Part shown: positions 3,605 through 56,140 of the stretch, in pieces
Layout: each line of letters opens with the position of its first letter
Position numbering within the stretch: the first letter of the stretch is position 1
Origin: an uncultured Eubacteriales bacterium
GTDB taxonomy: Bacteria; Bacillota; Clostridia; Christensenellales; QALW01
Length of the DNA: 64,000 nt
Assembly (NCBI GenBank): GCA_900547955.1
Contig: URIR01000003.1
Coordinates: 11,711 to 75,710 of the forward strand
Direction: 5' to 3'
The notes under the pieces: model-generated
The model's database searches: none
Told to the model about the DNA's origin: nothing
What the model saw: only the letters and a program-made list of their open reading frames with translations
Translations under genes and position numbers: made by a program

Positions 3605-3641
3605 TATAATTAATCCCTTCCTTAATATTGCTTCCTGAGCA

Positions 3642-3887
3642 TTACATTCCCGCCCGCTGAATAATGGTCTGCGCGGTTATGGGGGAAAGATAAAAGACGT
3701 ATCCCCGCTTATCGGCCGTCAGTATTCCGCATTTATAAGGAGGCGGGCCTATTTCTATCAGAAAGCCCTCCTCCCTGGAAATCTTTATAAAGTCTTGGGT
3801 ATCTTCAGTCAGCTCACCGTTCAGCTCAAGCACGGCTACGATTTTTTTTTGAAGCACGCTGACGTCTCCGCCCAGATGGACAAGCAT
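3642..3887 (-). CDS. DUF370 / RemB-like small protein
   Basis: 81 aa. The [11 protein letters not shown]...[13 protein letters not shown] pattern and the position directly upstream of gyrB are typical of the Firmicutes DUF370 gene. Confidence 0.8.
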
Positions 3888-4293
3888 ACGCTATTCCTTT
3901 CCCGGCTTAAACGCCGGATTATTAAAGCAAATTGAAAAAAGCAGTTGAAAGGCTGAACCGTTAAAAAACAGCAACCTTATTATATTTTTTATTATAGCAT
4001 ATTTTCATGCTTCTGTCTTGTGATTTTTGAAAAAACCCATGTTAAATATGGCGTAAAAGTCATTTTAAGCACTCAGACCCTTTTTAAGCATGAGCGCAAA
4101 TACTCCACCGTATGCCAAAGAGGAAAAAACGCCTGAGGGGCATATGCGCGGCATTGGGAGGGGCGGAGGAAGGAAGCTTTTGTATTGTAAAACAAAACGG
4201 ACGAAGAGACATATCGGTACGAAATAGGCGAACGATATATGCGTATAGTCAAAGAGCGGTAAAGAAAGCCGCGTTGCCGCGGACGCTCCCCAT

Positions 4294-4330
4294 ATTAATA
4301 AAAGGACGGCTGCGCCGTCCTTTTATTAAT
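4294..4330. terminator. Bidirectional intrinsic terminator downstream of pepF
   Basis: Perfect 16-bp stem attaataaaaggacgg / ccgtccttttattaat with loop ctgcg. The GC core is flanked by an A4 tract and a T4 tract. Confidence 0.6.
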
Positions 4331-4342
4331 ACAGGGGAGCCG

Positions 4343-4387
4343 AAGGGGGCGGCCGGGGCACAACGCGCCCCGACTCGCCCCCTTTTT
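4343..4387. repeat. GC-rich nested hairpin
   Basis: Outer stem aagggggcg (4343-4351) pairs with cgccccctt (4376-4384). It encloses cggggc...gccccg and is followed by T5. Confidence 0.5.
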
Positions 4388-4424
4388 GCTGTGCTTCGCC
4401 CAAACGCTCGAGGCTTAAAGCGGC

Positions 4425-6143: not shown

Positions 6144-6162
6144 GCGCCAAATGGCGCGCCAT

Positions 6163-6247
6163 AGATAATATAATCAAAAGGGCAATGCGTTTTTAAAAGG
6201 ATATTGTTTTGTTTGTCCTGGGACGCATTGTATTTTGATTTTATTGA
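6163..6247. mobile_element. Miniature (85 bp) derivative of MITE family 1, TA-flanked
   Basis: Termini gataatataatcaaaagggcaatgcg and cgcattgtattttgattttattgat are inverted repeats related to the ends of the 276-284 bp copies. A TA dinucleotide lies on both sides (6161-6162 and 6248-6249). Confidence 0.55.
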
Positions 6248-6334
6248 TTAAATGATATAGTATTATATATTATATGTGTATGCAATAATTATATCTGGAT
6301 AAAAATTAACCAATTATTAACATTTGAGCGGGCG

Positions 6335-6426
6335 GGGGCCGGCGTTTGGCAGGCGCCGCAGGCGCCTGCCTGGGCCGGGCGCTGCCGCGCCCGGCCTGCG
6401 GCCGTACGGCCGCAAACGCCGGCCCC
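6335..6426. repeat. GC-rich cloverleaf palindrome (four-way junction), member 1
   Basis: Outer stem ggggccggcgttt (6335-6347) pairs with aaacgccggcccc (6414-6426). It encloses three perfect hairpins: ggcaggcgcc-gca-ggcgcctgcc (6348-6370), ggccgggcgc-tgcc-gcgcccggcc (6373-6396) and tgcggccg-ta-cggccgca (6397-6414). Confidence 0.85.
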
Positions 6427-6502
6427 GCAGAATAAAGCCGGGAAGAACGCTCAAAGATATAGCCCTGCTAGAAAGCGCAAAGCGGGCGGGATTATATAAT
6501 AA

Positions 6503-6594
6503 GGCGCCCCTGCCGCCGCGCAGCGTGCGGCGGCAGGGGCGCCCGGGCGCGCGTAAAACGCGCGCCCTCCTTTAAAGGGCGGGGCGTCCCCGCG
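6503..6594. repeat. Two perfect GC hairpins plus the CCTTTAAAGGGCGGGGCG motif
   Basis: A 17-bp stem ggcgcccctgccgccgc / gcggcggcaggggcgcc at 6503-6543, a 9-bp stem gggcgcgcg-taaaa-cgcgcgccc at 6545-6567, and the motif at 6565-6591. Confidence 0.8.
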
Positions 6595-6710
6595 ATTAAC
6601 GCATAAGCCTTCTAGAAAAGAAATTTTCAACCGTTTCAGCTTAAAAAACCTTTGTATTCTCCTTAAAACCCGTTTGTAATAAAAAATTTAAGAAAAATTA
6701 AAAAAACCGC

Positions 6711-6739
6711 TTGCCAAGCGCGGATTTTTATTGTAATAT
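6711..6739 (+). promoter_or_regulatory. Candidate sigma-A promoter of the S10 operon
   Basis: TTGCCA (6711-6716), a 17-nt spacer, then TAATAT (6734-6739). This lies about 185 nt upstream of rpsJ. Confidence 0.5.
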
Positions 6740-6923
6740 AAAAAAGCCGCAAAACGCGCCGAATGCGGCAAAACGGTATGAAGCGGGAGGTTGCCGGAAT
6801 AATCCGGGTAATTTCCGCGGACAATTGTCCGATAATCGGACGACAGGCCAAATGGCCGCTTTAAAAATTTAAAAGCGGCACACACGGAAACGTGTATTTG
6901 AGCTTACAAGGAGGTTTATTTTA

Positions 6924-7232
6924 ATGGCAAGTCAGAAGATCAGAATCAATCTTAAGTCGTATGACCACAATCTGGTGGACCAGACAGCGGCCAGGATAGT
7001 GGAGACCGCCAACAGGACAGGCGCAACTGTTTCAGGTCCCATACCGCTGCCTACAGAAAAAGAAGTAGTTACTATCCTGCGCTCCCCTCATAAATATAAG
7101 GACAGCCGGGAGCAGTTTGAAATGCGTACCCATAAGCGTCTCATCGACATCTATAACGCCGGCAGCAAGACGGTCGAAGCGCTTACAAAGCTTGATCCTC
7201 CCGCAGGCGTGGATATCAAGATAAAGCTCTAA
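6924..7232 (+). CDS. rpsJ: 30S ribosomal protein S10
   Basis: The 102-aa translation ([17 protein letters not shown]...) matches uS10. An AAGGAGG RBS is present and it is the first gene of the conserved S10 order. Confidence 0.98.
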
Positions 7233-15532: not shown

Positions 15533-15700
15533 GTATGCAGGCGGAATGCGGACATGCGAGTATGCGGGCGCTCGAGTATACAGGCAGATATGCGGACATG
15601 AAGGCGGTTCGGGCGTTCGGGTATACAGGCAGGCATGCGGACATGCGAGTATGCGGGCGCTCGAGTATGCAGGCAGGTATGCGGACATGCGGGCGTTCGG
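15533..15700. repeat. GC-rich degenerate tandem repeat inside the rpsE-rpmD spacer
   Basis: Four 36-45 bp units start at 15533, 15576, 15621 and 15665. Each opens with GTAT(G/A)CAGGC(G/A)G..ATGCGGACATG. Units 1 and 3 also share gcgagtatgcgggcgctcga, giving a higher-order repeat of about 88 bp. Confidence 0.85.
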
Positions 15701-24307: not shown

Positions 24308-24509
24308 TTTAGGAGCGCCTAAGCAGTTAAAGGGCCAGGGGGGCGGCGCGCCGCCCGGCCGAGCCAAAGGCTCGGCCGGGCCAGGCGGCCCGCATAATCC
24401 GGGGGCTTTTAGCCCCCGGATTATGCGGGCCGCCTGCTTTTGGCGCCCGTAAGGGCGCCAAAAGGGCGCGCCGCCCCCCTGGCCCTTTAACTGCTTAGGC
24501 GCTCCTAAA
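24308..24509. repeat. GC-rich cloverleaf palindrome (four-way junction), large member
   Basis: Perfect 45-bp outer arms at 24308-24352 and 24465-24509. They enclose three abutting perfect hairpins at 24353-24381, 24382-24436 and 24437-24464, with no unpaired junction nucleotide. Confidence 0.9.
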
Positions 24510-24528
24510 TTTATTTATCAGAATTTAT

Positions 24529-24948
24529 CTATACCCAAAAGAAGCCGGACTGCATGCTGCAGATCTGGCTTTTTCCTGTATTGGGATATAATTTGCGCTT
24601 CCTCTTTTGAAAGCTCTGTCTCCAAAAACGCGTTCCCATATCAGGACGAATATCCAGCAGTTCATTTGGATTCACTTTAAGAACGTTGCAGATAGAAGCG
24701 AGAATGTCTACGTCGGGGCGGTTAAGGCCCTGCTCCCAGTTGGATACGCGCGCATTGCTCACACTAATAAGCTTGGCAAATTTGATACCGTTGCGTATAA
24801 AGCGGGCATATTTCCGGCGGTATTTAAAAAATGCTTGATGGCCGGCGCACGATATATTCGGAGCAGTATAAGGCAATTTGCCAGGCGCTGGGGGTGGGGC
24901 TGAAACATTTTTAAATATTAAATTGGCATAGCCGGCTTCAAAAAGCAA
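24529..24948 (-). CDS. XRE-family helix-turn-helix protein (start uncertain, possibly decayed)
   Basis: The central stretch IKFAKLISVSNARVSNWEQGLNRPDVDILASICNVLKVNPNELL fits the Cro/C1 HTH pattern. The roughly 40-aa N-terminal extension has no recognisable feature. Confidence 0.5.
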   Translation of the reverse strand: MLFEAGYANLIFKNVSAPPPAPGKLPYTAPNISCAGHQAFFKYRRKYARFIRNGIKFAKLISVSNARVSNWEQGLNRPDVDILASICNVLKVNPNELLDIRPDMGTRFWRQSFQKRKRKLYPNTGKSQICSMQSGFFWV

Positions 24949-24975
24949 GCAAACGGATAAAGAATTTCTTGATGA

Positions 24976-26362
24976 GGATTACAGAGCCAGGGCGACCTTG
25001 TCTCTGCCCGCAGCCAAGGAGAAACTGGCGAGCGACATAATGTTTGTATATCCACAAGCGCGGATGTAGAGGAGGTGATGGTTGAAATGCTTTTTAATCT
25101 TAAGGCGCACGCTGAAAATTCGCAGGCCAGCGTTAAGGTCGGCGTCGTTATATTTAATAAGCAGGCTAACGTAACCTGTGTCCTTACCGATATTCAGACG
25201 GGCTATGAGGATATTTTAGAGGGCATCAGGACGGATATAAGCAGCGGCACCAATACTCATGCCGGTATCTTAGCGGGCAAAAAAATGCTGGATGAGGATT
25301 GCGCGGTGCCGGCCAGGCGAAAATATCTGATTTTTATAAGCGATGCGATAACATATATATAACGAAGAGCCTGCTGCTATTCCATCGCAGTTTGCGGAAA
25401 ACGCCGTATTTGCTGGTCCGGACGCATGGGCTAATAAATATCAGAATAATAATCCTCCAAGCGACTGTAATGAATTTTTGACTTCCGTCGGCGTTCAGAT
25501 TGAGGCGGATGGAGATACCTTTGAAGCAAACTACGGAGCAAAGGAGCCGTTTATCCCCTATTCAGAACGCAGCGGGCATGCTATGACGGTAGCTAAGGCG
25601 CTGTATAATACGGCCATGGCTTATAAAAGCGCCCAGGATGCGGGATATACCTGCTATGCCATAACAGCTTCCGCGTCGGCAGCCGCCTCCGAGCAATATT
25701 CATGGGGCCCTTCCTTTATGAATTATCTGGCTCAGGGAGAGAAGGTATCCTTTGACGGAATATACAATGAGGCAATATATCTTTTGGATGCGGGCAGCAG
25801 GGTTATTGACGTAATAGGCAGCGGGTAAGGCCAGTATAGGGACGGAGAGCTTATTGATAAGGGATATAATTTTGTAAACAGTCCGGAGACGCTGGAATTG
25901 AAGGTAGGGGAAGATAAATACGCGCTGACCCGGCTGGAGAATAAGGTATATGCCTTTGGAGAGGAGAACGGACAAAATCAATATCCCTTCATACTGCGTT
26001 ATTATCCCGAGGGGACTGCCTCAGAGCCGCGCGAGCATTTAGTTTGGGAAATTAACGCGCCGGTGGATATAACCAGACGGGCGAGCCTTACATATACTGT
26101 GGAGCTTGCCGACCCGCAGTCTGAGGCAGGGCTGTACACGCAGCTTTATACCAATGAGGAGGCAATTATATATCCTGTGGATACATGCGGCAGCGAAGGC
26201 GAGGGAGAATATTTTGAAAGACTTGCGGCAGCTTACAGAATTTTGCCTATGGAGGAGGAGCACCCGACGGGAGACGCCGGAGTTCTTCTGCTATGCTGCA
26301 TATTGGGCGTATGCGTCTCAGCCGTAATTTTGCTTAAAGTCTTAAAGGTCAGAAACGAATAG
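24976..26362 (+). pseudogene. Remnant of a vWA-domain, sortase-anchored surface protein
   Basis: Three ORF fragments (25075-25362, 25478-25828, 25898-26362) read through as one protein if two lesions are repaired. One is a frameshift at the (AT)4A tract at 25353-25361; the other is an in-frame TAA at 25826-25828. vWA motifs are present (SGTNTHAGI, LIFISDA). The C-terminus is HPTGD followed by a TM segment and a basic tail. The signal peptide and the DxSxS motif are missing. Confidence 0.75.
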
Positions 26363-26459
26363 AGGCCGGGGAGCAATTAGAAAACATTTAGTGCAGGAAA
26401 AACTCCTGGTCAGGGCGGGCCGCACGGCTATACTCCTGGATAAAGGCTGACGCTGCCAG

Positions 26460-26501
26460 AATAATGGACCGTCCATAATAGGATGGTCCATTATTTTTTT
26501 T
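26460..26501 (+). terminator. Intrinsic terminator after the vWA remnant
   Basis: Stem aataatggacc / ggtccattatt followed by a T-run. Confidence 0.65.
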
Positions 26502-26509
26502 GCGCCGGC

Positions 26510-28416: not shown

Positions 28417-28504
28417 CAACCCGGCGGCGCCGCGGCCTGCGGCCGCGGGCCGGGCCTTTTGGCCCGGCCGGGCAGGCGCAAAGCGCCTGCGCGCCGCCGG
28501 GTTG
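28417..28504. repeat. GC-rich cloverleaf palindrome (four-way junction), member 2
   Basis: Outer stem caacccggcggcgc (28417-28430) pairs with gcgccgccgggttg (28491-28504). It encloses cgcggcc-tgc-ggccgcg (28431-28447), ggccgggcc-tttt-ggcccggcc (28448-28469) and gcaggcgc-aaa-gcgcctgc (28472-28490). Confidence 0.88.
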
Positions 28505-28838
28505 ATGATATTGAAAAACAAGTTAAGCTGCCGTCCTTTCGGTATGCGTTGATACTGTCTGCCGGCAGTCGTGCGCCCGCACGATAAGGCAAAATATGAG
28601 GAATGCCTTCCGTCTATTCGGGCGGAGGGCAATTTTAAATTTAGGCTTGCAACAATTGTTTTTATCATTTATGGTATGAACATATAAAGATTTTGAAACT
28701 CATTTATATCAGACAGGATAATAACTCTGTTTTTTGCCAGCAGAATATCAGATTAAAAGACGTATTTCACTTTCGGTTTTTGGTGGCAGGGACGCATTTT
28801 TTTATGAGTTGAGGAATTAGAATTTAAAAGGAGGGATA

Positions 28839-29114
28839 GACAATACAGTCAAAGCGCAATGCGTTTTTCATAATGCCCGTCGCGTCCGCTTTGCTGCGCG
28901 GTCATAAAAATATGCCCGGTATGTCTTTAATTGCGCGCCGCGCGGGTGTCAACGGGTTCTTATGCAAAAATCTCCGCCCGCATAGAAAAAGGGAATCTTC
29001 CAGCTTTGCAAGGCGGCAGGACGCAGAAATACCAGGCGTATTTTAAGGACGACAACGCAGCAAAACCGAGCAATTCACACTTTCGTCGGCGTACTGTACT
29101 CTGATTGTATTGTC
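28839..29114. mobile_element. MITE family 1, full-length copy (276 bp), TA-flanked
   Basis: Termini GACAATACAGTCAAAG... and ...CTGATTGTATTGTC are inverted. TA lies on both sides (28837-28838 and 29115-29116). By eye it is roughly 80% identical to the copy at 34174-34457. Confidence 0.8.
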
Positions 29115-29123
29115 TAAGTAAAG

Positions 29124-30605
29124 ATGAAAAATAAGCTTTTAGGTCTGCTGCTCTGCGGCTTGCTGTGCATAGGGCTGTTTCCGGCGCAGGTATTCGCCGC
29201 GGGCGTAAATGAGGGAATTATTGTAAACGGAGTGGATATTACTACGGCTCAGGATTATACCGTAGTTTGCGGTGAAGGCAAAGCTGTATATAATCCGCAG
29301 GAGCAGAAGCTGACGCTGGACAACGCGGAAATCACGGTAGGAGCGAAGGCGAGTTCTACTGCCGGCGAGCGTTACGGCGTCGCTATACAGGGCGGGATAA
29401 CTGGTACAGTCGAGGTTGTTTTGAATGGAAAAAACAGCATTATCCTGTCTGATACGCAATACAAAAATATGGGAATATGGGCGGCAGGCTCCAGCCTTAA
29501 GTTTTCAGGCGGGGGAAGCCTGGAGGTATCTCTTTATAATGATTCATTTCCCTCTATAATACAGGGCAGGAATCTGGAATTTGAAAAAGTAGATATTACC
29601 GGCAGGCTTTTGAACGAAGAAAGCCCTTGCGGTTATGCTGTCCGGACGACTGGTACGGTAATAAGCAATCAGTCCGCTTTTGAGATTACCGGCTTTGAGA
29701 CAGCGATTGATACCGGCTCGCTTGCTATGAGGAACGGCAGCAGCCTAAATGTTAAAACTTCTGCAGAATACGGAATGGGGGTATTTTCCGGGGATATACT
29801 TGTTGAAGATTCGCAGATGGAACTTCAGGTTCCGGATACCGGACTTTACTGCCTGGCTGGTAATTTGACAGTCAGCCGGAGCAGTATTGTTTGCTCGCAG
29901 GCGAACGTTGGTATGTATGCCGAAGAAGGGATAATAACGGTCAAAGAAGATTCCATGCTGAATTTAAATAACAAAATTTATGGCCTGCGAATTTATAACG
30001 GCAGTTTATCCATTAGCGGCGGCGTAATTCATGCGTCAGGCAGCAGAGGAGGAATCCAGGTTCTGAATGTGAAGGAGGATGAAACAGACACGCCGACTGT
30101 AGCTATCTTTATGGCGCCTGATTGGGCGGAAAAGGCCGGCGGAAAAGCCGCCGCGGCAGAGTGCTTGTATGACGACGGATATGACGAGCCGTATCCTGTT
30201 TTTATTACAACCTTTATTTCTGCAGAAGACAGTATACTGAATGAGGATTTAAGCAACGCGGTTACGTCAGTACAAATCCAAATCAAGGGCGCCGACTACA
30301 GCAGGGTGGAAGAAATGATAGAAAAGGCAAAGGCCCTGAATAAAGACGAATACAAGGATTTTTCAAAGGTGGAAGCGGCGATAGACGCCGTTATATATGG
30401 CAAGAATATTAAGGAGCAGGGCTTGGTAGACGATATGGCGGAGGCGATTGAGGATGCCATATCCTCGTTGGAAAAGAAGCTGGATACTGATATTCCGCAG
30501 ACGGGAGATAACGGTATGATAATTTGGATTGCTGTTATGCTCGCGGCAGGCGCAGGATTGTCCGGGACGGTAATCTGCGGCAGAAAGATAAAACGCAGCA
30601 GATAA
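29124..30605 (+). CDS. Secreted cell-surface protein with C-terminal sorting signal (IPQTGD + TM + basic tail)
   Basis: 493 aa; signal peptide MKNKLLGLLLCGLLCIGLFPAQVFA; repetitive beta-rich body; a helical ADYSRVEEMIEKAKALNKDEYKDF module; sortase-type C-terminus. Confidence 0.85.
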   Translation: MKNKLLGLLLCGLLCIGLFPAQVFAAGVNEGIIVNGVDITTAQDYTVVCGEGKAVYNPQEQKLTLDNAEITVGAKASSTAGERYGVAIQGGITGTVEVVLNGKNSIILSDTQYKNMGIWAAGSSLKFSGGGSLEVSLYNDSFPSIIQGRNLEFEKVDITGRLLNEESPCGYAVRTTGTVISNQSAFEITGFETAIDTGSLAMRNGSSLNVKTSAEYGMGVFSGDILVEDSQMELQVPDTGLYCLAGNLTVSRSSIVCSQANVGMYAEEGIITVKEDSMLNLNNKIYGLRIYNGSLSISGGVIHASGSRGGIQVLNVKEDETDTPTVAIFMAPDWAEKAGGKAAAAECLYDDGYDEPYPVFITTFISAEDSILNEDLSNAVTSVQIQIKGADYSRVEEMIEKAKALNKDEYKDFSKVEAAIDAVIYGKNIKEQGLVDDMAEAIEDAISSLEKKLDTDIPQTGDNGMIIWIAVMLAAGAGLSGTVICGRKIKRSR

Positions 30606-30667
30606 CCAAAGGGCATAATAAGAGACTAAAAAGAGAGCCGGGGTATTTCTCCGGCTTTCTTTTTGTA

Positions 30668-30771
30668 TGCGCGCGGGCAAAGACATATCCGGGCGTATTT
30701 TTAAGACCGCGCAGCAAAGCGGACGGGGCGGGCTCTTAAGCAAAAACGTATTGTGCTTTGAATGTATTGTC
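30668..30771. mobile_element. Rearranged or partial MITE family 1 copy
   Basis: atatccgggcgtatttttaagaccgcgcagcaaagcgga...aaaaacgtattgtgctttgaatgtattgtc matches the reverse complement of the left third of the full copies, including the terminal repeat. Confidence 0.6.
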
Positions 30772-30985
30772 CAGGCAATAACCGCATATATAATAATTTT
30801 ATATGCGCTTTCCCCAAATAGGGTTTTATCACGCAGTAAAATAGAAAATGCGGGCAAGAAACAGCCTGCTCCTTACCCGCTTTTTTCTCAGCCATATATG
30901 GCTGAAATTCTGTTTAATTATGTTATGGATATTGTTTTGTTTGCGCAGTTTTCTGGGTTAATCATTATTTAGACTATCTGGCGGG

Positions 30986-33808: not shown

Positions 33809-34173
33809 TAAAGTTCCTCCTTATAATTTTAACTAAATTGAGAACTGAGCTGCCATGAGGGGTATTTTAAAAGCTGCTTTAGGGGGGCTGGCTCACCAGG
33901 CATTTTATCGGCGGAATAAGTTGAATTGCAGACATTGGCAGAGCGTCCGCGCTTTTATAACAGATACTTTAGCATATAACTAGGGAGGAGTACAGAGACG
34001 GATATAACTAACAAGGAGACAAAACTAACGCCGGGATAATATTTATCCCCTTGCCGACGGGGACAAAAAAGCGGAAGGCAAAAGGAAAGGATGCCTTGGG
34101 GCTGAGCGTTTTTTAAGAAAATGCAGAGGGACGGCAAGCAATGCCGTCCCGTTAAATATTTTTTATTTCATTA

Positions 34174-34457
34174 GACAATACAATATAATACAATCAAAGT
34201 ACAATGCGTTTTTGGATAAATCCCGCCGCATCCGCTTTGCTGCGCGGTCTTTAAAATACGTCCGTATGTATTCAATCAGGCGCCGCGCTGCTGTCAACGG
34301 GCTCTTAAGCAAAAATCTCCGACCGCAGAGGAGGAAAATTATTCGGTTTTGTAAGGCGGCAGGGCGCAGAAATACCGGGCGTATTTCAAGGACAACAACA
34401 CAACAAAACCGAACAATTCACACTTTGGGCGGCGCATTGTACTTTGATTGTATTGTC
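34174..34457. mobile_element. MITE family 1, full-length copy (284 bp), TA-flanked
   Basis: 27-nt terminal inverted repeat tagacaatacaatcaaagtacaatgcg / cgcattgtactttgattgtattgtcta. It is perfect apart from a 10-nt duplication in the left arm. TA lies on both sides. Confidence 0.85.
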
Positions 34458-34492
34458 TATGCTCTTGAACATGTTATTTGATTCTGAGCGCG

Positions 34493-36012: not shown

Positions 36013-39000
36013 TTACACCATAACCGTGCCGTCAAAGACCTTTACTGCGTTGCCTGTCATATACACCTCGCCCGTATCGGTATACCTTATCTTAAGCTCT
36101 CCGCCCAGCAGCTTAACGGTTATATCGGTATTTTTATCGCAGAGTCCGTTTTCTACGGCTGCTACGGCCGCCGCGCAGGCGCCTGTGCCGCAGGCCCAAG
36201 TTTCCCCGCTGCCCCGCTCCCAGACGCGCATTTTAAGAGTAGCGCGGTCTATAACCTTGACAAATTCGGCGTTGACCCTCTCGGGGAACAGCTCGCTGTG
36301 CTCAAACTGAGGACCAATCTTTTCCAGCGGGAAGAAATCTACGTTTTCAACAAATACTACGCAGTGGGGATTGCCCATGGAGACGCAGGTTATATGGTAA
36401 TTTTCCCCGCCTATATTTACCTGCCGGCCTATGACCTTATCTCCCTCTAATTTTACCGGCACCTCCTCCGGCCTGAGCTGCGCCGCGCCCATATTCACTC
36501 TGGCCGAGGTGGCTACGCCGTTCTGCGTATACACCCTTATGCTCTTTATGCCCGAAAGGGTTTCAAGGGTCATAACCTCTTTATTAACCATATGGTTGTC
36601 GTATAAATATTTGGCGACGCAGCGGGACGCATTGCCGCACATCCTGCCTTCGCTGCCGTCCAGATTGAACATGCGCATTTTGGCGTCCGCCTTGGAGGAG
36701 GGGCATATTAATACCACGCCGTCGCCTCCTACTCCGAAATGCCTGTCGGCCAGGCGTATGGACAGCCCCTCCGGGTTGTCTATATGCTGCTCAAAGGCGT
36801 TAAAATAGATATAGTCGTTTCCGCAGCCGTGCATCTTGGTGAACTTGAGCTGGGTGCGCTTGGTGCGCATATGGTTGATGTCCACCAGCTCGCAGTTCAA
36901 TTCGGAATAGCGGCTCTTTATGCTGTCGGCTACGGCGTGAGCCGTGTCTATGGAGGTCAGGCAGGGTATGCTGCGCTCTACCGCCTTGCGCCGTATTTTA
37001 ACGCTGTCCCTGCCGGGCAGGCGGCCTTTGGCGCTGGTGGAGATAAGATAGTCTATTTTGCCGCTCTCTATAAGGGTGAGGGTGTTGACGTCGCTTTCGT
37101 GTATCTTGCTGACTATCTCGGCCTCCATGCCTGAGGCCTTTATAATTTCAGCCGTGCCCGCCGTAGCGTATAATTTAAAGCCCAAATCATAGAATTTCTT
37201 GGCTACTGCCGCAATCTCGGGCTTATCAGAATCGCGCACCGAGAGGAATACGCCCTTTTTGGAGGAGCTGACCGCCTTGCGCAGCTTATAGCCCGCCGCA
37301 ATAAGCCCTTTATAAAGCGCTTCCTCCAGGGTTCCCGCCAAGCCCAGCACCTCGCCCGTGGATTTCATTTCGGGCCCAAGATGGCTGTCCACGTTGGCCA
37401 GCTTTTCAAAGGAGAATATGGGCACCTTAACCGCGAAATACGCGCCCTGGGGATAAAGCCCCGTGCCGTAGCCCATATCGTAGAGCTTTTCGCCCAGCAT
37501 GGCGCGGGTGGCCAGCGCCACCATGGGTACGCCCGTTACCTTGCTTATATAAGGCACGGTCCGGGAGGAGCGCGGGTTGACCTCTATTACATAAAGCTGG
37601 CCGTTATATATGACGTACTGGATGTTTATAAGCCCCTTGGTATTCAGAGCCAGAGCCAGGCGGCGGGTGCAGTCCACTATGCGGCTGACCATGCGGTCGC
37701 TTAAGTTGTAGGCGGGATATACGCTTATGGAATCGCCCGAATGCACGCCCGCCCGCTCTATATGTTCCATTATGCCGGGGATGAGTACGTCCTCCCCGTC
37801 GCAGATGCCGTCTACCTCTATTTCCAGCCCCATAAGGTATTTATCTATTAATACCGGATTCTCTATGCCCTGGGAGAGGATTATCTGCATGTATTCCCTG
37901 ACGTCCGAATCGTTAAAGGCGATTATCATATTCTGGCCGCCCAGCACATAGGAGGGACGCAGCAGCACGGGATAGCCTATTTCATTTGCGGCGGCCAGCG
38001 CGCCCTGAGCGTCGGTTACCGAATGCCCCTTGGGCCGCTCTATCTTTAATTCCTCCAGCAGTTCGTCAAAGCGTTCGCGGTCCTCCGCCCGGTCTATGCT
38101 GTCCGCGCTGGTGCCTAAAATGTTTTCTCCCCGTTCAGAAAGGAACCTGGTCAGCTTGATGGCCGTCTGGCCGCCGAAGGCTACTACGACGCCCCAGGGC
38201 TTTTCTGTTTCAAGCACGTTGCGCACGTCCTCGGGAGTGAGGGGTTCAAAATAAAGCCGGTCGGCGGTGTCAAAGTCGGTAGAGACGGTTTCGGGGTTGT
38301 TATTGACTATAACCACTTCAAAGCCGGCGTTTTTAAGCGCCCAGACGCAGTGCACCGAGGCGTAGTCAAATTCTATGCCCTGGCCTATCCGGATGGGGCC
38401 GGAGCCGAATACTATTACCGTCCGCTTGCGCTCGGGCAGCTCCTGAATAAATTCCTCAGCCTCGTTTTCCTCTTCAAAGGAGGAGTAGAAATAGGGGGTT
38501 TCGGCGCTGAATTCGGCCGCGCAGGTATCCACCATCTTAAATACCGCAACAGCGGGATTCTCTACCCTTTGCCCCGAAAATTCCTCTATGACGCTGTCTA
38601 AAAAGCCCATGCGCTTGGCGCGCAGGTAGGTCTCTCTGTCAAAGCCCTGCTTAAGGGTGTTTTCCATATCTATGATGTTTTGAATCTTATATAGGAACCA
38701 TAGGTCTATCTTGGTTATGTCGTGTATTTCCTCGGGGGAAACTCCCTTCCTGAGCGCGTCGGCCACGATAAACAGGCGCTCGTCGGTAGTTTCATGCAGG
38801 CGGGAGAGCGCTTCCTCCCGCGGCAGGTCGTATTTTTTGGAATAGAGGCTCTTAAGCCCTATTTCGGCGCCCCTTACCGCCTTTAGCAGGGCTTCTTCAA
38901 AGGTAACGCCTATGGCCATAACCTCGCCCGTGGCCTGCATCTGGGTGCCTAACTGGCGTTTGGCGTATACGAATTTATCAAAGGGCCATTTTGGCAGCTT

Positions 39001-40062
39001 AACTACTACGTAATCCAGCGCAGGCTCAAAGCAGGCGCTCTTGCCCGTTATGGCGTTGGCGATTTCGTTGAGATTATAGCCTATGGCTATCTTGGCGGCC
39101 ACCTTGGCTATGGGATAGCCCGTGGCCTTGGAGGCCAGCGCGCTGGAGCGGGATACGCGGGGATTGACCTCTATTACGGCGTATTCAAAGCTCTCGGGAT
39201 TGAGGGCGAACTGGCAGTTGCAGCCTCCCTCCACCTTTAGGGCGGAGATAATGTCCAGCGCCGCCGTGCGCAGCATCTGATATTCCTTATCGGCTAAGGT
39301 GACGGCGGGCGCGACTACTATTGAATCTCCCGTATGTATTCCTACGGGGTCTAAATTTTCCATGCTGCATATGGTTATAACGTTGCCTGCGCCGTCCCGC
39401 ATGACCTCGAATTCAATTTCCTTCCAGCCGGCAATGCATTTTTCCACCAGTATCTGGCCTATGGGGGAGAGCCTTAGGCCGTTGACGGCAATATCCGCCA
39501 TTTCCTCGTCGTTATTGACTATGCCGCCGCCGCTGCCGCCTAGTGTGAAAGCTGGGCGGATAATGAGGGGATAGCCTATTTCACGGGCGAAGGAGAGCGC
39601 GTCCTCAAGGGTGGTCACTACTCTGGAGGGAATGCAGGGCTGATTAATGCTCTGCATGGTGTCCTTAAACAGCTGGCGGTCCTCGGCTTTATCTATGGTT
39701 TCAGGATTGGCCCCCAGCAGGCGCACGCCCATCTGCTCCAAGAAGCCGTCCTTGGCTAACTGCATGGAGAGGGTCAGGCCCGTCTGGCCGCCTAAGGTGG
39801 AAAGCAGGCTGTCCGGGCGCTCCTTTTCTATTATGCGCTTTATTACGGGCAGGGTTAAAGGCTCGATATATATGCGGTCGGCCATAGCGCTGTCCGTCAT
39901 TATGGTGGCCGGATTGGAATTAACCAGGACTACCTCCAGGCCGTCCTCCTTAAGCGCGCGGCAGGCCTGGGTGCCCGCGTAGTCAAATTCGGCCGCCTGC
40001 CCTATGACAATGGGCCCGGAGCCTATAACCATGACTTTTTTTATGCTTTTGTTAAGCGGCAT
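36013..40062 (-). CDS. carB: Carbamoyl-phosphate synthase large subunit fused in frame to diaminopimelate epimerase
   Basis: Single 1349-aa ORF. Residues 1-1064 are a full-length CarB (two ATP-grasp halves plus an MGS-like tail). Residues 1065-1349 (nt 36870-36013) are a full DapF (FTKMHGCGNDY, GNASRC, ERGSGETWACGTGA). Confidence 0.93.
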   Translation of the reverse strand: MPLNKSIKKVMVIGSGPIVIGQAAEFDYAGTQACRALKEDGLEVVLVNSNPATIMTDSAMADRIYIEPLTLPVIKRIIEKERPDSLLSTLGGQTGLTLSMQLAKDGFLEQMGVRLLGANPETIDKAEDRQLFKDTMQSINQPCIPSRVVTTLEDALSFAREIGYPLIIRPAFTLGGSGGGIVNNDEEMADIAVNGLRLSPIGQILVEKCIAGWKEIEFEVMRDGAGNVITICSMENLDPVGIHTGDSIVVAPAVTLADKEYQMLRTAALDIISALKVEGGCNCQFALNPESFEYAVIEVNPRVSRSSALASKATGYPIAKVAAKIAIGYNLNEIANAITGKSACFEPALDYVVVKLPKWPFDKFVYAKRQLGTQMQATGEVMAIGVTFEEALLKAVRGAEIGLKSLYSKKYDLPREEALSRLHETTDERLFIVADALRKGVSPEEIHDITKIDLWFLYKIQNIIDMENTLKQGFDRETYLRAKRMGFLDSVIEEFSGQRVENPAVAVFKMVDTCAAEFSAETPYFYSSFEEENEAEEFIQELPERKRTVIVFGSGPIRIGQGIEFDYASVHCVWALKNAGFEVVIVNNNPETVSTDFDTADRLYFEPLTPEDVRNVLETEKPWGVVVAFGGQTAIKLTRFLSERGENILGTSADSIDRAEDRERFDELLEELKIERPKGHSVTDAQGALAAANEIGYPVLLRPSYVLGGQNMIIAFNDSDVREYMQIILSQGIENPVLIDKYLMGLEIEVDGICDGEDVLIPGIMEHIERAGVHSGDSISVYPAYNLSDRMVSRIVDCTRRLALALNTKGLINIQYVIYNGQLYVIEVNPRSSRTVPYISKVTGVPMVALATRAMLGEKLYDMGYGTGLYPQGAYFAVKVPIFSFEKLANVDSHLGPEMKSTGEVLGLAGTLEEALYKGLIAAGYKLRKAVSSSKKGVFLSVRDSDKPEIAAVAKKFYDLGFKLYATAGTAEIIKASGMEAEIVSKIHESDVNTLTLIESGKIDYLISTSAKGRLPGRDSVKIRRKAVERSIPCLTSIDTAHAVADSIKSRYSELNCELVDINHMRTKRTQLKFTKMHGCGNDYIYFNAFEQHIDNPEGLSIRLADRHFGVGGDGVVLICPSSKADAKMRMFNLDGSEGRMCGNASRCVAKYLYDNHMVNKEVMTLETLSGIKSIRVYTQNGVATSARVNMGAAQLRPEEVPVKLEGDKVIGRQVNIGGENYHITCVSMGNPHCVVFVENVDFFPLEKIGPQFEHSELFPERVNAEFVKVIDRATLKMRVWERGSGETWACGTGACAAAVAAVENGLCDKNTDITVKLLGGELKIRYTDTGEVYMTGNAVKVFDGTVMV

Positions 40063-43294: not shown

Positions 43295-43543
43295 CGGTTT
43301 AAACGGGCGCGGCTATACGCATAATTTTCTAAGCGGTAAAGCCTGAACGGCCGGCTGGAGACGCGGCTTTTTGAGCGGTTAAAGCCTGAACGGCCCGCTG
43401 GAGATGCTGTTTCCTGAGCGCGGATTTTTAAACGGCCGGCCGGGGCGCTGCTTTTTTGAGCGGGGAAAGCCTGAACGGCCGGACGCAAGGCTGTTTTTTG
43501 CATGCGGACGCTTAAGGCGGCCCGGCCGCCTGCGGCTGAATGC
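43295..43543. repeat. GC-rich tandem repeat with a 42-43 bp period
   Basis: Units start at 43330, 43373, 43416, 43458 and 43500. Units 1, 2 and 4 read ...gcgg(t)(t)aaagcctgaacggccgg...; units 1-4 end in a T-run (e.g. gctttttt). Unit 3 and especially unit 5 are more divergent. Confidence 0.85.
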
Positions 43544-45303: not shown

Positions 45304-46851
45304 ATGAAAAGATTTTTCGCTTATGCTGCGGCTTTTGCGCTTATGCTCAGCTTTGCTTCATGCGCTTCTTCAAGCGGACCTTCGCCGTCGGCTGAGGGGC
45401 TTAATGCTTTTAGCCCGTCTGCGGCGGCGGATTATAATTTGCCCCAAAATGGCGAAACGGCGGGAAACACTTTTGCCGCGGGCACTCTGCCTATAGGCAG
45501 TACGGCCGGCGGCGGAGCAGCGGCGGACGCCTCTGCCTCGGTTCAGCCTACCGGGACCGCTTATGCTTCTACGCCCACGCCTACGCCTACACCTGCGCCT
45601 ACGCCTACACCTACACCTACACCTACACCTACACCTGCGCCCACGCTTACGCCTGCTCCGCAGCCCTCTAAGACTACTGAACCTACGCTTTCGCCGCGGC
45701 CGACCGCTTCATATACGTCCGAGCCGACCACTACGCCCGTGAACGTCCCGATACCTACGGCGGTTATCGGCGAGCCCAAGGAGCATTATGACGATATCCA
45801 GGGGGTAAACGGCAAAAATAATGCAAGCAACTACAGATTGGCGTTTGTCAGCCTTCAAATAATAAATGCGGACAATTATATTTATTTTGTGGGCGGCGAG
45901 CCTCGGAACCAAATGGTTCCGTACGGCACTTACCGTCTGGATACCAGGACGGATAAGCTGGAATTTTTCAGCGGGGAACAGATGAATGAAATGTTTATAG
46001 CGGGCGAATGGCTGTATTATGAGATATATGATTCGGAAACTGATAGTTATTACAGCTACCGCATGCATTCGGACGGCACATGCCAGACCAGGCTCTCCTA
46101 TCTTATGCCTGACGTCTTCTGCTGCCTGGACGAATATCTTTATTATATAGAGGAGGGCAGCCTTTACCGCAGGCTTATATCGGGCGAGGATGAGCCCGTG
46201 CTTGCGCGAGAACCTGAACAGGACGAGGAGTTCAGCAGTATCTGCACGGACGGACAGAATTTATATATAGTAAGCGACAGCGCGGACGGCTCGCGCATAT
46301 ATAAGCAGAGCGGCTCGGAGAGCAAGATTCTTTGGACGGGGGATAATATTGGCGCTATAGTATATGACAGCGGCTATATATGGGGCGAGTCTCATTGGGA
46401 AGAGAATAAAGCGTATATTTTATTAAGGATAGACGCCGAAACAGGGGAAGAGGAATACACAGGCTTATGCGAGGATTACTCTAAGAGCAGATATTTCAAT
46501 ATAATTGATGGAACGCTGTACATTTTTGGCGATAGTTACGGCTTGCGTAATCTTGTAAGCATGGATATTAATTTTGAAAATAAGACAGAACTGGGTTATT
46601 TGACAACGGCGGGCAACATAAACGGTATAAACAGCGCTAGTTTCTGCGTTATCGGGGACTATTTCTGCTTTAAGGGGCCGGTTGGCAAGGGAGTGTATGA
46701 AAGCGTCGTGCTCTTTAAAAACGACGGCAGCAATAAATATATGGTAATAGATACGGATTTTCCCGACCCCGACGGGGAAGTCCCCAGCCGAGATTATCCT
46801 ATTATGGCATGGATGAAGGATGATTGGATGGACGAATATACAAGGCCGTAG
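45304..46851 (+). CDS. Lipoprotein with Pro/Thr-rich linker and beta-propeller-like (DUF5050-type) C-terminal region
   Basis: 515 aa; lipobox LSFASC; a (TP)n linker encoded at about 45571-45660; repeated YIYF/LYYI-type strands. Confidence 0.8.
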
Positions 46852-46856
46852 AATCA

Positions 46857-46988
46857 GAATGAAGAAAATTTGCGCGGGATAAAGCGCGTTTGCAGTAGAA
46901 ACGTACCGGGTGGTACCTGGAAGCAAAGCAACGCGGCAGGACGCAAATTTTATGCATTCTGGCCACGCAGTTTCTTGTAAACTTAGGG
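46857..46988. mobile_element. Partial copy (right part) of repeat family 2
   Basis: aagcaaagcaacgcggcaggacgcaaattttatgcattctgg...tttcttgtaaacttaggg aligns with 52650-52713. It ends 10 nt before the rpsF -35 box. Confidence 0.65.
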
Positions 46989-48179: not shown

Positions 48180-48474
48180 ATTATATGATTGGCATTCCCT
48201 GCAAGCGCTGGTATGCTTTAAAAAGCGTCAATTTCGGACGGCAGCCGAGGGCGGGGCCTTGCTGGATTGCGGAAGGGACTTTAGAGCGGGCTGGCGTTGG
48301 CATATTTGCAATGGGGCGGAATATTTGTATTTGCGGACTGTATCAGCCGGTATGGCCGGATAGCCATATGGGCGGAATGAGAAGGTGCTTTTGATTGGCC
48401 GGGCTTTGAGCGGTTGAGCTTGGTTATCAAGCGGCCGTATGAGCGAAACGAGCGGGGGCAGAGACGGCAGGGCT

Positions 48475-48670
48475 GGCTGAGCGAGCTGGGATTACGAGGG
48501 AAACCAGCAGGGGCGGCTAAGCGAGCTGGGATTATGAGGGGAAACAGCAGGGCCGGCGGGGCGAGCTGGGATTATTGGGGAGAAAGGGCAAGGCCTGCAC
48601 GGCAGGTTGGGATTATAGTGAAGAAACAGCAGGACTGGCAGGGCGGGTATCGGATTAGGGGAGCAGGGGC
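48475..48670. repeat. GC-rich tandem repeat with a period of about 40 bp
   Basis: Units at 48475, 48515, 48555 and 48601, plus a decayed fifth. They share the core gctgggatta(c/t)..gg.gaaa..agcagg. Confidence 0.85.
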
Positions 48671-48789: not shown

Positions 48790-48985
48790 TGCGGTATTTT
48801 GATGCGGCGAGGGGGACTTAAAGCACCCCTCTCTCCCCTCTCCCACCCTTTCTTTTTTTACTGCCCTTTTGCGCCCGAAAGCCCTGCGGCTGAGGCATTT
48901 TCCCCTGCAGACGCAGGAGAATCTGCAAACCAATATTTGCATATTATACCAAATAGCTTGTTCCTGTATTTTGATATCCATAGCC
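48790..48985 (-). repeat. Repeat family 3 unit (about 190 bp), inverted relative to the 51665-52035 copies
   Basis: The reverse complement aligns with 51851-52035. Both start with (g)gtatcaaaatacaggaa and end with a polypurine gggagag... block followed by gcatcaaaat(a/c)ccg. Confidence 0.7.
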
Positions 48986-51664: not shown

Positions 51665-52035
51665 GAGGGAGAGAGGGTGTTAAGTTAATAACCTCGCATC
51701 AAAATACAGGAAGAGGCTCTTTAGCAGAATAAGCGGCTGAGAGCTGGAACCGGCGCTGGGCAAAGCGGCCAAAGCAGCGGTGAATACGGCAAAAAACGGG
51801 CTGCATATATGTATTATGCGCTTTGAAAGGCGCATGTGGGCGTATACCCCTCAGGGTATCAAAATACAGGAATATACTTTTTGGCAAAATAGATGTTTAA
51901 TGGGTTGCGGATTTTCGGGGCTTTGGGAGAAATGCCCATGCGCTGGGGCTTGCAGCCGTCAGGCTTTGGGCGAAGAAAAGAAAAAAGGGGGCGCGAGGAG
52001 GGAGAGGAAGTCACCCTCCCTGCATCAAAATCCCG
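51665..52035 (+). repeat. Repeat family 3, two tandem units
   Basis: The boundary motif (polypurine block followed by atcaaaatacagg) recurs at about 51696, 51857 and 52020. Confidence 0.7.
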
Positions 52036-52437: not shown

Positions 52438-52713
52438 CCCTCAGTTTACAAGGAACTACACGACTTAAAACGGGACAATTTCTTCATTTTCTGCGTTATA
52501 CTCAATCAGTATACTCATAAGTAGCGATTTCTTGGTCTGCCTTGAAAATGAAGAAATCCTTTTTCTTTGAGCTCTACAGAGTCAGAAGGCATAAAATTTG
52601 CGCCAGGTAAAGCGCGCTTGAAGGAAAAATGTATCCGGGCGTACATGGAATCAAAGCAACGCAGCAGGACGCAAATTTTATGCCTTCTGACCGTCTTCCT
52701 TGTAAACTGAGGG
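52438..52713. mobile_element. Repeat family 2, full-length MITE-like element (276 bp)
   Basis: 18-bp perfect terminal inverted repeat ccctcagtttacaaggaa (52438-52455) / ttccttgtaaactgaggg (52696-52713). An internal 22-bp perfect inverted repeat is gtcagaaggcataaaatttgcg (52581-52602) / cgcaaattttatgccttctgac (52670-52691). Confidence 0.8.
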
Positions 52714-53053
52714 TGCTGAAATAGCAAAAAAATAACAGCCGAAAAAAGCTGCTTGCATAAATATACACTAAAGCTGTTTAAAAATAAATCCGAGCAGAAA
52801 GAGAGACGGCAAAATTAAGCCGCCATGCAGACAGTAATGTGAAAAAATGCTTAATCCCTTTCTCTGCGCGCTTTAAAATGAAGACCGTATGCGTCGCAGA
52901 TTGTAACGGCCAAATATGTTTATTTCTTGTCTTAATGATAACACCCCAAATATTAAAAGTCAATACCCACACGAAAAATAATTTAAATTGTTGATAACTT
53001 TTTGTGAATATTTATAAATGCGCAGCAATATATCATTTTTATTGGAGCGTATA

Positions 53054-53207
53054 GACAATGCAATCAGATTATAATGCGTCGCCGAGGGGGTGAATTGTTT
53101 GGTTTTGCTGCGTTGTCATTCTTAAAATACGCCCGGCATGTATTCAATCATACGCCGCGCAGCCATCAATGGGCATTTATGCAAAACGCATCTTTGATTG
53201 AGTTGTT
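53054..53207. mobile_element. MITE family 1, short (154 bp) rearranged copy, TA-flanked
   Basis: gacaatgcaatcag...gtgaattgtttggttttgctgcgttgtc matches the reverse complement of the right end of the full copies. The remainder matches the central part. TA lies on both sides (53052-53053 and 53208-53209). Confidence 0.7.
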
Positions 53208-53300
53208 TAATCCTGCCGTCTATTTATTTCGCCAAGCAGCATCAGGAATATTCGGAATTTAAGTATATAATGCCTGTCTCTGGATTTATGTAAAAATCAG

Positions 53301-53476: not shown

Positions 53477-54562
53477 ATGTTAAAAGAGGGACAATTTAGA
53501 ATACCTTCAGGCTGCGCTGTTTCGGGCATGCTCTGCCGCGGTGGGCGCAGGCTGAGCGGCGAAAAGATAATTAAATCCATCGCCGTTATGCACGACCGCT
53601 CCAACGGTTTGGGCGGGGGCTTTGCCGGCTATGGCATATATCCTGAATACAAGGATTATTTTGCGCTGCATGTGTTTTACAATTCTGCGGAGGCGCGCCA
53701 GAGCTGCGAGAGCTTTTTAGACAGGCATTTTGATATTATAAACCTTTCTAAGATACCTACCCGTAAGCTGCCTGAAATTACTGACGAGCCTCTGATATGG
53801 AGGTATTTTGTCGCTCCTCTGCCTACAAAGCTGGCTGAAAGCCAGCTTGAGGAATATGAGTTTACCGCTCGCTGCGTAACCAATATAAATACCAATCTTG
53901 ACGGCGCATATGTGTTTTCAAGCGGAAAGAACATGGGGGTGTTTAAGGCAGTAGGATTTCCGGAGGATGTGGGCCGGTTTTACCGCCTGGAGGAATATTC
54001 GGGCTGGTGCTGGACTGCGCACGGGAGGTATCCGACCAACACTCCCGGCTGGTGGGGCGGGGCGCATCCGTTTGCGCTGCTGGATTATTCGGTAGTGCAT
54101 AACGGCGAAATATCCTCGTATGACGCTAACCGCCGGTATATTGAGATGTTTGGATACAAGTGCAATTTATTAACAGATACCGAGGTTATAACCTATATGA
54201 TAGATTACCTAGTACGACGTATGGGCCTGAGCCTTAAGGAACTGGCAAATGTTATTGCCGCGCCCTTTTGGAGCACGATAAACGCTTTGCCTGAGGAGGA
54301 GCGCGAGCGGCTTACATATCTGCGCAACACCTTTGGGCCTTTACTGGTAACCGGGCCATTTTCCATACTTTTAGGCTTTTCCAACGGTCTAATGGCGCTT
54401 AACGACAGGCTAAAGCTGCGGTCCATGGTGGTGGGCGAAAAGGAGGATATGGTTTATATAGCCAGCGAAGAATGCGCCATTAGAGCAGTTGCGCCCGAGC
54501 TGGACAGAATTTGGGCGCCCAGAGGAGGAGAGCCGGTTATATATACTCTGGATATGATGTGA
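53477..54562 (+). CDS. Class-II glutamine amidotransferase subunit of split glutamate synthase
   Basis: 361 aa; the N-terminal Cys nucleophile context (RIPSGCAVSGM) and GltB-N-domain-like body fit. Confidence 0.85.
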   Translation: MLKEGQFRIPSGCAVSGMLCRGGRRLSGEKIIKSIAVMHDRSNGLGGGFAGYGIYPEYKDYFALHVFYNSAEARQSCESFLDRHFDIINLSKIPTRKLPEITDEPLIWRYFVAPLPTKLAESQLEEYEFTARCVTNINTNLDGAYVFSSGKNMGVFKAVGFPEDVGRFYRLEEYSGWCWTAHGRYPTNTPGWWGGAHPFALLDYSVVHNGEISSYDANRRYIEMFGYKCNLLTDTEVITYMIDYLVRRMGLSLKELANVIAAPFWSTINALPEEERERLTYLRNTFGPLLVTGPFSILLGFSNGLMALNDRLKLRSMVVGEKEDMVYIASEECAIRAVAPELDRIWAPRGGEPVIYTLDMM

Positions 54563-54634
54563 TACGGCGTTGCCTTAAATGAGCAAGACGCAGCAATTAA
54601 TGTTTTAAGTCAGTTAGGAAATGGGGTTTTAATT

Positions 54635-56140
54635 ATGGCGGTAAATTATATACATCCAGAATATGAAGTGGTTAGGGATTTTACGAGGTGCATAGCCTGC
54701 CGGGTATGCCAGAGGCAGTGCGCCAACTGCGTGCATTATTATGATGAGGAAAGCGGTCTTATGCGTGCGGACGAATCAAAATGCGTGTGCTGTCAGCGCT
54801 GCGTGGCATTATGCCCTACCCGCGCGCTGAAGATAGTTAAGAGCGATAATACCTTTAGGGCGAATTATAATTGGAGTGGGGAGACTATTCAGGAAATATA
54901 CCGCCAGGCTGAGAGCGGAGGAGTGCTGCTTTCTTCTATGGGCAATCCGCGTCCGCTGCCCGTATACTGGGACCGGCTGCTTCTAAACGCCTCCCAGGTG
55001 ACTAATCCGAGCATAGACCCTCTGCGCGAGCCTATGGAGACAGTAACTTTCTTAGGAGCCAAGCCGGAGCGGCTGGAGCGGAGCAGGGAGGGCGGCCTTA
55101 TTCCCAATTTAAGTCCGCAGCTTAAGCTGACGGCGCCCATAATGTTTTCGGCAATGAGCTACGGCTCTATAAGCTATAATGCGCACGAGGCCTTAGCCGG
55201 GGCGGCTTCAGAATTGGGGATATATTATAATACGGGCGAGGGCGGCCTGCATGAGGATTTTTATAAATACGGAGCCAACACCATAGTGCAGGTGGCTTCA
55301 GGACGCTTTGGGGTACATAAAAAATATCTGGAGGCGGCTGCGGCTGTGGAGATTAAAATGGGGCAGGGCGCCAAGCCGGGTATAGGCGGGCATCTGCCTG
55401 GAGAAAAAATAGTGGGTGAGATTTCGCGCACCCGCATGGTGCCCGAGGGGTCGGACGCCATTTCTCCTGCTCCTCACCACGACATATATTCAATAGAGGA
55501 TTTGCGGCAGCTTGTTTTTTCCATAAAGGAGGCCACAGAGTACAAAAAGCCGGTAATAGTTAAGGTCGCGGCGGTGCATAACGTTGCGGCCATAGCCAGC
55601 GGCATAGCCCGCTCGGGCGCCGATATTATAGCTATAGACGGTTTCAGGGGAGGCACGGGCGCGGCGCCAACGCGCATAAGGGATAACGTAGGCATTCCGA
55701 TAGAGCTGGCTTTGGCCAGCGTGGACGAGCGGCTCAGGCAGGAGGGAATAAGGGGCAGGGTTTCAATAGTTGTGGCTGGAAGCATACGTTCAAGCGCGGA
55801 TATGGTTAAGGCCTTAGCGCTGGGAGCGGACGCAGTTTATATAGGTACGGCTGCGCTTCTGGCCTTAGGCTGCCATCTTTGCCGGAATTGTCACAGCGGC
55901 AAATGCAACTGGGGAATAGCTACTCAGCGGCCTGAGCTGGTTAAACGGCTCAATCCGGAAATAGGGCGCAGGCGTTTAGTGAATTTAGTCAATGCCTGGA
56001 CGCATGAGCTTAAGGAGATTATGGGGGGCATGGGCATAAATTCAGTCGAGGCCCTGCGCGGCAACAGGCTGATGCTTAGGGGTATAGGAATGACTCAGAA
56101 GGAACTGGATATTTTAGGCGTGAAACATGCAGGTGAATAG
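54635..56140 (+). CDS. Glutamate synthase FMN/Fe-S domain subunit with N-terminal 2x[4Fe-4S] ferredoxin
   Basis: 501 aa; CxxCxxCxxxC clusters followed by a GltB central-domain pattern (GEGG, KMGQGAKPGIGGHLPG, IDGFRGGTGAAP). Confidence 0.9.
   Translation: MAVNYIHPEYEVVRDFTRCIACRVCQRQCANCVHYYDEESGLMRADESKCVCCQRCVALCPTRALKIVKSDNTFRANYNWSGETIQEIYRQAESGGVLLSSMGNPRPLPVYWDRLLLNASQVTNPSIDPLREPMETVTFLGAKPERLERSREGGLIPNLSPQLKLTAPIMFSAMSYGSISYNAHEALAGAASELGIYYNTGEGGLHEDFYKYGANTIVQVASGRFGVHKKYLEAAAAVEIKMGQGAKPGIGGHLPGEKIVGEISRTRMVPEGSDAISPAPHHDIYSIEDLRQLVFSIKEATEYKKPVIVKVAAVHNVAAIASGIARSGADIIAIDGFRGGTGAAPTRIRDNVGIPIELALASVDERLRQEGIRGRVSIVVAGSIRSSADMVKALALGADAVYIGTAALLALGCHLCRNCHSGKCNWGIATQRPELVKRLNPEIGRRRLVNLVNAWTHELKEIMGGMGINSVEALRGNRLMLRGIGMTQKELDILGVKHAGE

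Follow-up and report, generated by a model that had tools for sequence, protein, structure and literature searches.

A TA-duplicating MITE family, polymorphic among strains, in uncultured gut Clostridia

F1 copies in the window and their anatomy

The window, i.e. the whole stretch of 64,000 nucleotides that was analysed, belongs to the genome of an uncultured Clostridia bacterium of the human gut, which is related to Christensenellales. The genome has a G+C content of ~51%, and the assembly GCA_964325985.1 shares its dnaA with the window. The window holds an S10-Clostridia leader, a ribosomal protein operon, dnaA, gyrB and a glutamate synthase-like operon with GATase_2/Glu_synthase genes (53477-56140). 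Five copies of one repeat family, here called F1, were found in the window: two long copies, one short copy, one truncated arm and one termini-only copy (Table 1). The first-pass annotation had listed the same five, with the termini-only copy one base off at 6163-6247. It had also judged the two full copies to be about 80% identical, and we obtained 82.1% identity over 274 nt. A degenerate 25-nt TIR pattern matched the window five times, compared to 0.00 expected matches in 100 shuffles.

Intact F1 copies start with GACAAT or GATAAT and end with the reverse complement of that start. The ends had previously been described as GA(C/T)AAT...ATTG(T/A)(C/T); this holds for the starts, but the right end of 53054-53207 reads GTTGTT and not ATTGTC. 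Direct reading of the flanks bore out the TA reported on both sides of all four window copies with both ends intact. For the copy at 34174 we also observed a 10-bp internal duplication, ATAATACAAT, within the left TIR.

Table 1. Positions of F1 and F2 features in the window
Feature	Position	Strand	Remark
F1 MITE, long form, 284 bp	34174..34457	+	polymorphic among same-species strains
Left TA of target-site duplication, 34174 copy	34172..34173	.	single TA in empty allele
Right TA of target-site duplication, 34174 copy	34458..34459	.	empty-allele comparison
Right TIR of 34174 copy, CGCATTGTACTTTGATTGTATTGTC	34433..34457	+	pairs with left end in folds
Internal palindrome GAAATAC-CGGGC-GTATTTC, right arm	34369..34387	.	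conserved in 41 unique F1 copies
Weaker inverted counterpart of palindrome, left arm	34253-34269		
F1 MITE, long form, 276 bp	28839..29114	+	TA at 28837-28838 and 29115-29116
F1 short one-arm form, 154 bp	53054..53207	+	TA at 53052-53053 and 53208-53209
F1 truncated left arm, ~104 nt	30668..30771	-	outer end 30771, flank CA
F1 termini-only copy, 85 bp	6164..6248	+	TA at 6162-6163 and 6249-6250
F2 copy	52438..52713	+	left flank TA, right flank TG
F2 right-half fragment	46851..46988	+	repeat D4

The consensus F1 TIR is 25 nt long (GACAATACAATCAAAGTACAATGCG) and the 25-nt TIRs are conserved across species in all intact copies. The family profile matched every long copy over its full length on both strands, so the 276-bp form consists of two homologous ~135-bp arms arranged head-to-head, and the internal inverted repeat mentioned in the first-pass annotation is real. 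The long forms measure ~276 bp (276-284 bp in the window) and the short forms 85-180 bp. One-arm forms of 139-178 bp, in which one arm is combined with the opposite TIR, recur in other genomes, and 53054-53207 is of the same type. For this copy it is plausible that it arose by recombination across the internal repeat, as had been suggested for the short variants in general. We ruled out the same origin for 30668-30771, which is collinear with the left ~105 nt of a subfamily from other species (GCGTTTTTGCTTAAGAGCCCGCC...) and thus represents a truncated arm. None of the copies (85-284 bp) contains a Pfam-bearing ORF, and the indels in the F1 alignment are not multiples of three. A small palindrome is present in each arm of the long form. 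In another species a 40-bp palindrome unit was repeated in tandem four, three and two times, respectively (L067 4601-4999, L124 5410-5769 and L106 ~5968-6288); these are alleles of one F1 copy from different samples.

The copy at 28839 is placed between the Shine-Dalgarno sequence and the ATG of a 493-aa ORF. The encoded protein is lipoprotein-like; the Shine-Dalgarno sequence reads aaaGGAGGga and the ATG is at 29124. In the predicted RNA fold of window positions 28826-29126 the entire element forms one hairpin, with the Shine-Dalgarno sequence 2 nt and the AUG 7 nt away from the base of the stem. According to this model the spacing between the two signals could be functionally preserved across the inserted copy.

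Other features of the window were also noted. Two strain-specific segments flank dnaA (24509-26509 and 28504-30944); in their place other strains of the species carry ~78 bp and ~61 bp, respectively. The first segment directly adjoins a perfect 45-bp inverted repeat (24308-24352 / 24465-24509). A variable cassette site is located at 34100/34101, 73 bp from the MITE at 34174. At this site other strains carry either a 2.0-kb insert, whose ORFs (131 or 102 aa, 363 aa and 58 aa) have no Pfam hits, or a 0.94-kb insert with a 217-aa ORF. On the minus strand, 36013-40062 holds a 1349-aa ORF in which a full carbamoyl-phosphate synthase large chain is followed by C-terminal diaminopimelate epimerase domains. 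Tandem intergenic repeats of 40-45 nt occur at 15543-15695, 43325-43480 and 48467-48586, one of these sets separates the S5 and L30 genes in the ribosomal protein operon, and further repeats at 48939-48975, 51698-51734 and 51858-51891 share ATCAAAATACAGGAA.

Target-site duplication, polymorphism and distribution

Contigs of further strains of the window's species, ~99% identical, were retrieved via the flanking proteins. The 34174 copy is precisely absent from five of them (L033, L038, L039, L041 and L042). The empty allele reads ...TTTCAC-TA-TGCTCTTG with a single TA, and the filled allele of the window reads ...TTTCAT-TA-(284 bp)-TA-TGCTCTTG. Such a clean single-TA empty site implies that the TA is a true target-site duplication, and the empty-site comparison proposed in the first-pass annotation was thereby decided in favour of the duplication at five empty alleles. 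A second pair was found in another species: L070 (filled, gcaTA...TAatc) has two dinucleotides and L132 (empty, gcaCAatc) has one, where the empty site reads CA, a C/T difference.

The copy at 6164 was present in all three same-species contigs retrieved for its site and the copy at 53054 in all eight. The copies at 28839 and 30668 are located inside a strain-specific 2.44-kb segment (28504-30944) and hence give no empty site of their own. For the polymorphic 34174 copy we saw no recent source copy; the closest non-allelic relative is just 89% identical and thus gives no sign of recent activity in the species of the window.

We then considered the distinct insertion sites of the fetched loci, which cover three or more species. 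TA was found on both sides in 35 of 42 distinct full-length insertions, and the remaining seven were one base off. Of 62 distinct half-flanks, 43 have a G three nucleotides ahead of the TA (p = 3e-13). This preference yields a palindromic 8-bp target, GNNTANNC, and a palindromic target consensus points to a symmetric, enzyme-mediated insertion.

A scan for the TIR across 185,579 species-representative genomes gave matches in just two MAGs, both from chicken gut: Ca. Neochristensenella gallicola and a 'Selenomonadales' MAG. The metagenome scan for the TIR resulted in 86 loci, many of them labelled human gut. In the viral collection (IMG/VR) there was one real match, L056; this contig and L004 of the 'Selenomonadales' (QALW) MAG represent one and the same locus. 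BLAST searches of plasmid and phage collections with F1 gave no match. F1 was thus found only in a narrow clade of at least three species, comprising the two MAGs, related gut metagenome contigs and the one IMG/VR contig. The copies are dispersed and their contexts are unrelated to one another. Deletion derivatives and contig breaks are located at F1 copies, as is expected of dispersed repeats. A search of the literature did not find a description of the family.

Across assemblies one and the same half-flank (at least 90 bp identical) can be joined via F1 to up to four different partner flanks (L064, L090, L138, L008, L091, L001, L058 and other loci). Such shuffled pairs are due to assembly chimeras formed across the repeat or else to genuine rearrangements mediated by the MITE. 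In L002 an F1 copy is interrupted, precisely at the loop of its internal palindrome, by a run of 3610 Ns (3541-7150). We considered an autonomous element at this place, but the run is more likely a scaffold gap: in that MAG contig ends lie at the same variable loop and two contigs overlap within a copy.

The F2 family and the shared interior

An inverted-repeat scan exposed a second TA-flanked MITE family, F2, of ~274 bp, with the TIR CCCTCAGTTTACAAGGAAC directly after the TA. In total 24 unique copies were found, including the full copy in Table 1 and the half copy at about 46851-46988. In reverse orientation the consensus of F2 can be aligned to F1 with a score of 146, far above the 77 ± 10 for shuffles, and the two families are distantly related. 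Both carry a palindrome at the same relative position, CATGTAC-CGGGC-GTACATG in F2 and GAAATAC-CGGGC-GTATTTC in F1; the stems differ by three compensatory changes and the loop is identical. The F1 interior is about as conserved across species as the TIRs, and it is partly conserved across F2, whose TIRs differ. Of all the features, only this conserved interior is left without an obvious explanation by simple selfish spread, and it is the reason why a reading of F1 and F2 as selected modules is weighed below.

The two families were also encountered at shared sites. In L095 a 9-bp F2 end, flanked by TA, lies at a TA inside an F1 TIR; this remnant probably represents an F2 insertion which was later mostly deleted via TGTA microhomology. 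The flank of the fragment ending at 46988 is orthologous to the flank of the F1 copies L014/L058 in Neochristensenella, so that in two species one promoter-proximal site was hit by the two families. A related species (~80% identical) has an F2 copy between its M3 peptidase gene and S10 operon (L043 / L047 2157-2429), and in the window the same spacer holds the 85-bp F1 copy in place of F2.

Mobilisation, rival explanations and known systems

We consider F1 to be a family of non-autonomous cut-and-paste MITEs, mobilised in trans by a DDE transposase that is most likely of the IS630/Tc1-mariner type, and assign a probability of roughly 0.9 to this explanation. The copies are small and lack a transposase gene, have TIRs, are dispersed and are bounded by a duplicated TA; the first-pass annotation was thus right to call them a MITE family. 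A narrow clade of at least three species carries copies with the conserved TIRs, the duplicated TA and the target preference described above, and one insertion is polymorphic within a species. The mechanism would be as follows: the transposase acting in trans would recognise the 25-nt TIRs and insert the element at the TA inside the palindromic GNNTANNC, thereby duplicating the TA. Copies would land in intergenic DNA, and those that are transcribed are predicted to form a long closed hairpin. Trans-mobilisation and the assignment to this enzyme family are inferred from the TIRs, from the duplicated TA and by analogy with RUP and IS630-Spn1. The F2 remnant at a TA within an F1 TIR also speaks for the explanation. 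Counting against it are the lack of an autonomous partner among the loci searched, the 89% identity of the closest non-allelic copy, the conserved interior, and the CA at one of the two empty sites.

The search for the mobilising enzyme gave negative results at every level. No transposase was found in the window, in agreement with the first-pass annotation: the large ORFs tested are either housekeeping genes or without a Pfam hit. According to Pfam, the ORFs beside solo TIRs are housekeeping genes with no transposase among them, and none was found among the ORFs of the strain-specific cassettes, including the 363-aa ORF. Relaxed TIR pairs 0.6-4.5 kb apart never enclosed a transposase-like ORF, and a generic scan for self-inverted repeats across all loci recovered only ordinary genes flanked by MITEs or terminators. 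The 86 metagenome loci with the TIR are all MITEs or fragments and include no autonomous partner, and no transposase was found in the two related MAGs. Three scans of the viral collection, two of which used shortened TIR patterns of F1 and F2, yielded nothing beyond chance matches except for L056. Overall, no transposase of the IS630 or another family with ends matching F1 was detected in the genome, metagenome and viral scans or in the analysed loci. We also examined 28839-30771 (1933 bp), where F1 ends face outward around the 493-aa ORF, as a composite transposon and rejected it: the boundaries of the strain-specific segment 28504-30944 differ from the F1 ends and the right flank is CA.

The most direct alternative to mobility is that the copies are structured non-coding RNA genes or cis-regulatory RNA motifs. 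They do occupy transcribed intergenic positions, and both strands fold far better than shuffled sequences (z = -6.8 and -6.3). However, the folding is equally good on both strands and F1 has no strand preference, there is no Rfam match even at E ≤ 10, and in an alignment of 14 F1 copies from three species the RNAalifold covariation term was +0.91, with a double change in just 8 of 60 pairs and mostly one-sided changes. Together with the filled/empty polymorphism, the TA duplication and the unrelated genomic contexts, which indicate mobility, this makes the RNA-gene reading very improbable; it is not supported, and the larger conserved RNA gene that would have overturned the first-pass proposal did not emerge. 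The long imperfect palindrome with internal hairpins would also suit a REPIN/RAYT-type or IS200/IS605-derived element, moving via a single-stranded DNA route without target duplication. Elements of these types lack symmetric TIR termini and do not duplicate their target. In F1 the ends are symmetric, both junctions are TA and one TA is kept in the empty site, and the palindromic target consensus fits a symmetric double-strand insertion, so we regard such an origin as hardly credible.

The identity of the enzyme allows for more doubt. The IS427/ISL2 subgroups of the IS5 family produce duplications of 2-4 bp, often TA within YTAR, and their ends typically begin with GA or GG (ISfinder tables). 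A MITE moved by an IS5-family transposase of these subgroups, and not by IS630, would agree with the GA at the F1 ends, the 2-bp duplication and the missing IS630 partner. An IS5-type partner was likewise not found in our searches, though, the related F2 family starts with CC and not GA, and TA combined with an extended, symmetric target is what classically marks IS630/Tc1-mariner elements; we therefore consider this alternative improbable. For the mechanism named at first pass, IS630/Tc1-mariner-type TA duplication, the duplication itself stands at filled versus empty sites and the corresponding transposase was not found. It is also possible, if unlikely, that the MITE additionally carries a selected module, with the palindrome xxxxTAC-CGGGC-GTAxxxx as a candidate site bound by a host factor, or as a second site bound by the transposase; copies would then persist because they connect neighbouring genes to this factor. 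Within F1 the palindrome hardly varies, F2 retains it with the same loop and three compensatory stem changes, the two interiors are homologous despite different TIRs, and interior conservation across species is high. On the other hand, the stem differences between F1 and F2 are one set of changes between two families and not repeated independent events, covariation within F1 is nil, descent from a master copy alone can keep palindromes, and no factor was identified. A more speculative combination, to which we give little credence, would see F1 and F2 as branches of a MITE superfamily with swapped TIRs and a shared interior, the palindrome being selected as a binding site or hairpin. The copies would be parasites and, at the same time, scattered modules of regulation, and their transposase would not be recognisable as an IS in these genomes (e.g. 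domesticated or very divergent).

F1 is a previously undescribed MITE family in poorly studied uncultured gut Clostridia, to which F2 is related, and it is backed by direct filled/empty evidence and a defined 8-bp target. TA-duplicating MITEs are already well known and the family is no conceptual surprise. The elements create strain-level variation beside core genes (dnaA, the S10 operon and the glutamate synthase-like operon). They also break, and probably scramble, metagenome assemblies, and knowledge of them helps to judge MAG contiguity and apparent rearrangements.

TIRs, a duplicated TA and terminal TA are standard for bacterial MITEs, and it is by these features that RUP of pneumococcus was tied to IS630-Spn1 (PMC2229807). 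RUP resembles F1 in being a small, non-coding element of a Gram-positive host with TIRs and with insertion at, and duplication of, TA; it is also multi-copy, intergenic and able to fold into a long hairpin (PMC2229807). RUP differs in its length of 107 bp and in having a known IS with matching TIRs (IS630-Spn1, the proposed mobiliser), whereas F1 reaches 276-284 bp, shows a two-arm architecture with an internal palindrome and gave no partner IS in our searches. The likeness drawn here is one of features.

The Correia / NEMIS elements of Neisseria share with F1 TIRs of ~24-26 bp, TA termini with TA duplication, long and short classes that differ by an internal segment, and filled and empty sites between strains (PMC2229807). 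They contain an internal motif for protein binding (IHF) and are not known to have an autonomous transposase (PMC2229807). They belong to another host phylum and have another sequence, and F1 is longer.

For many families of Stowaway-type MITEs the source transposase is known. These and other non-autonomous Tc1-mariner elements have TA duplication and TIRs like F1, and the Stowaway-type MITEs are trans-mobilised by IS630-Tc1-mariner transposases (PMC3814204). In contrast to F1 they occur in eukaryotes, and their sequences are unrelated to it.
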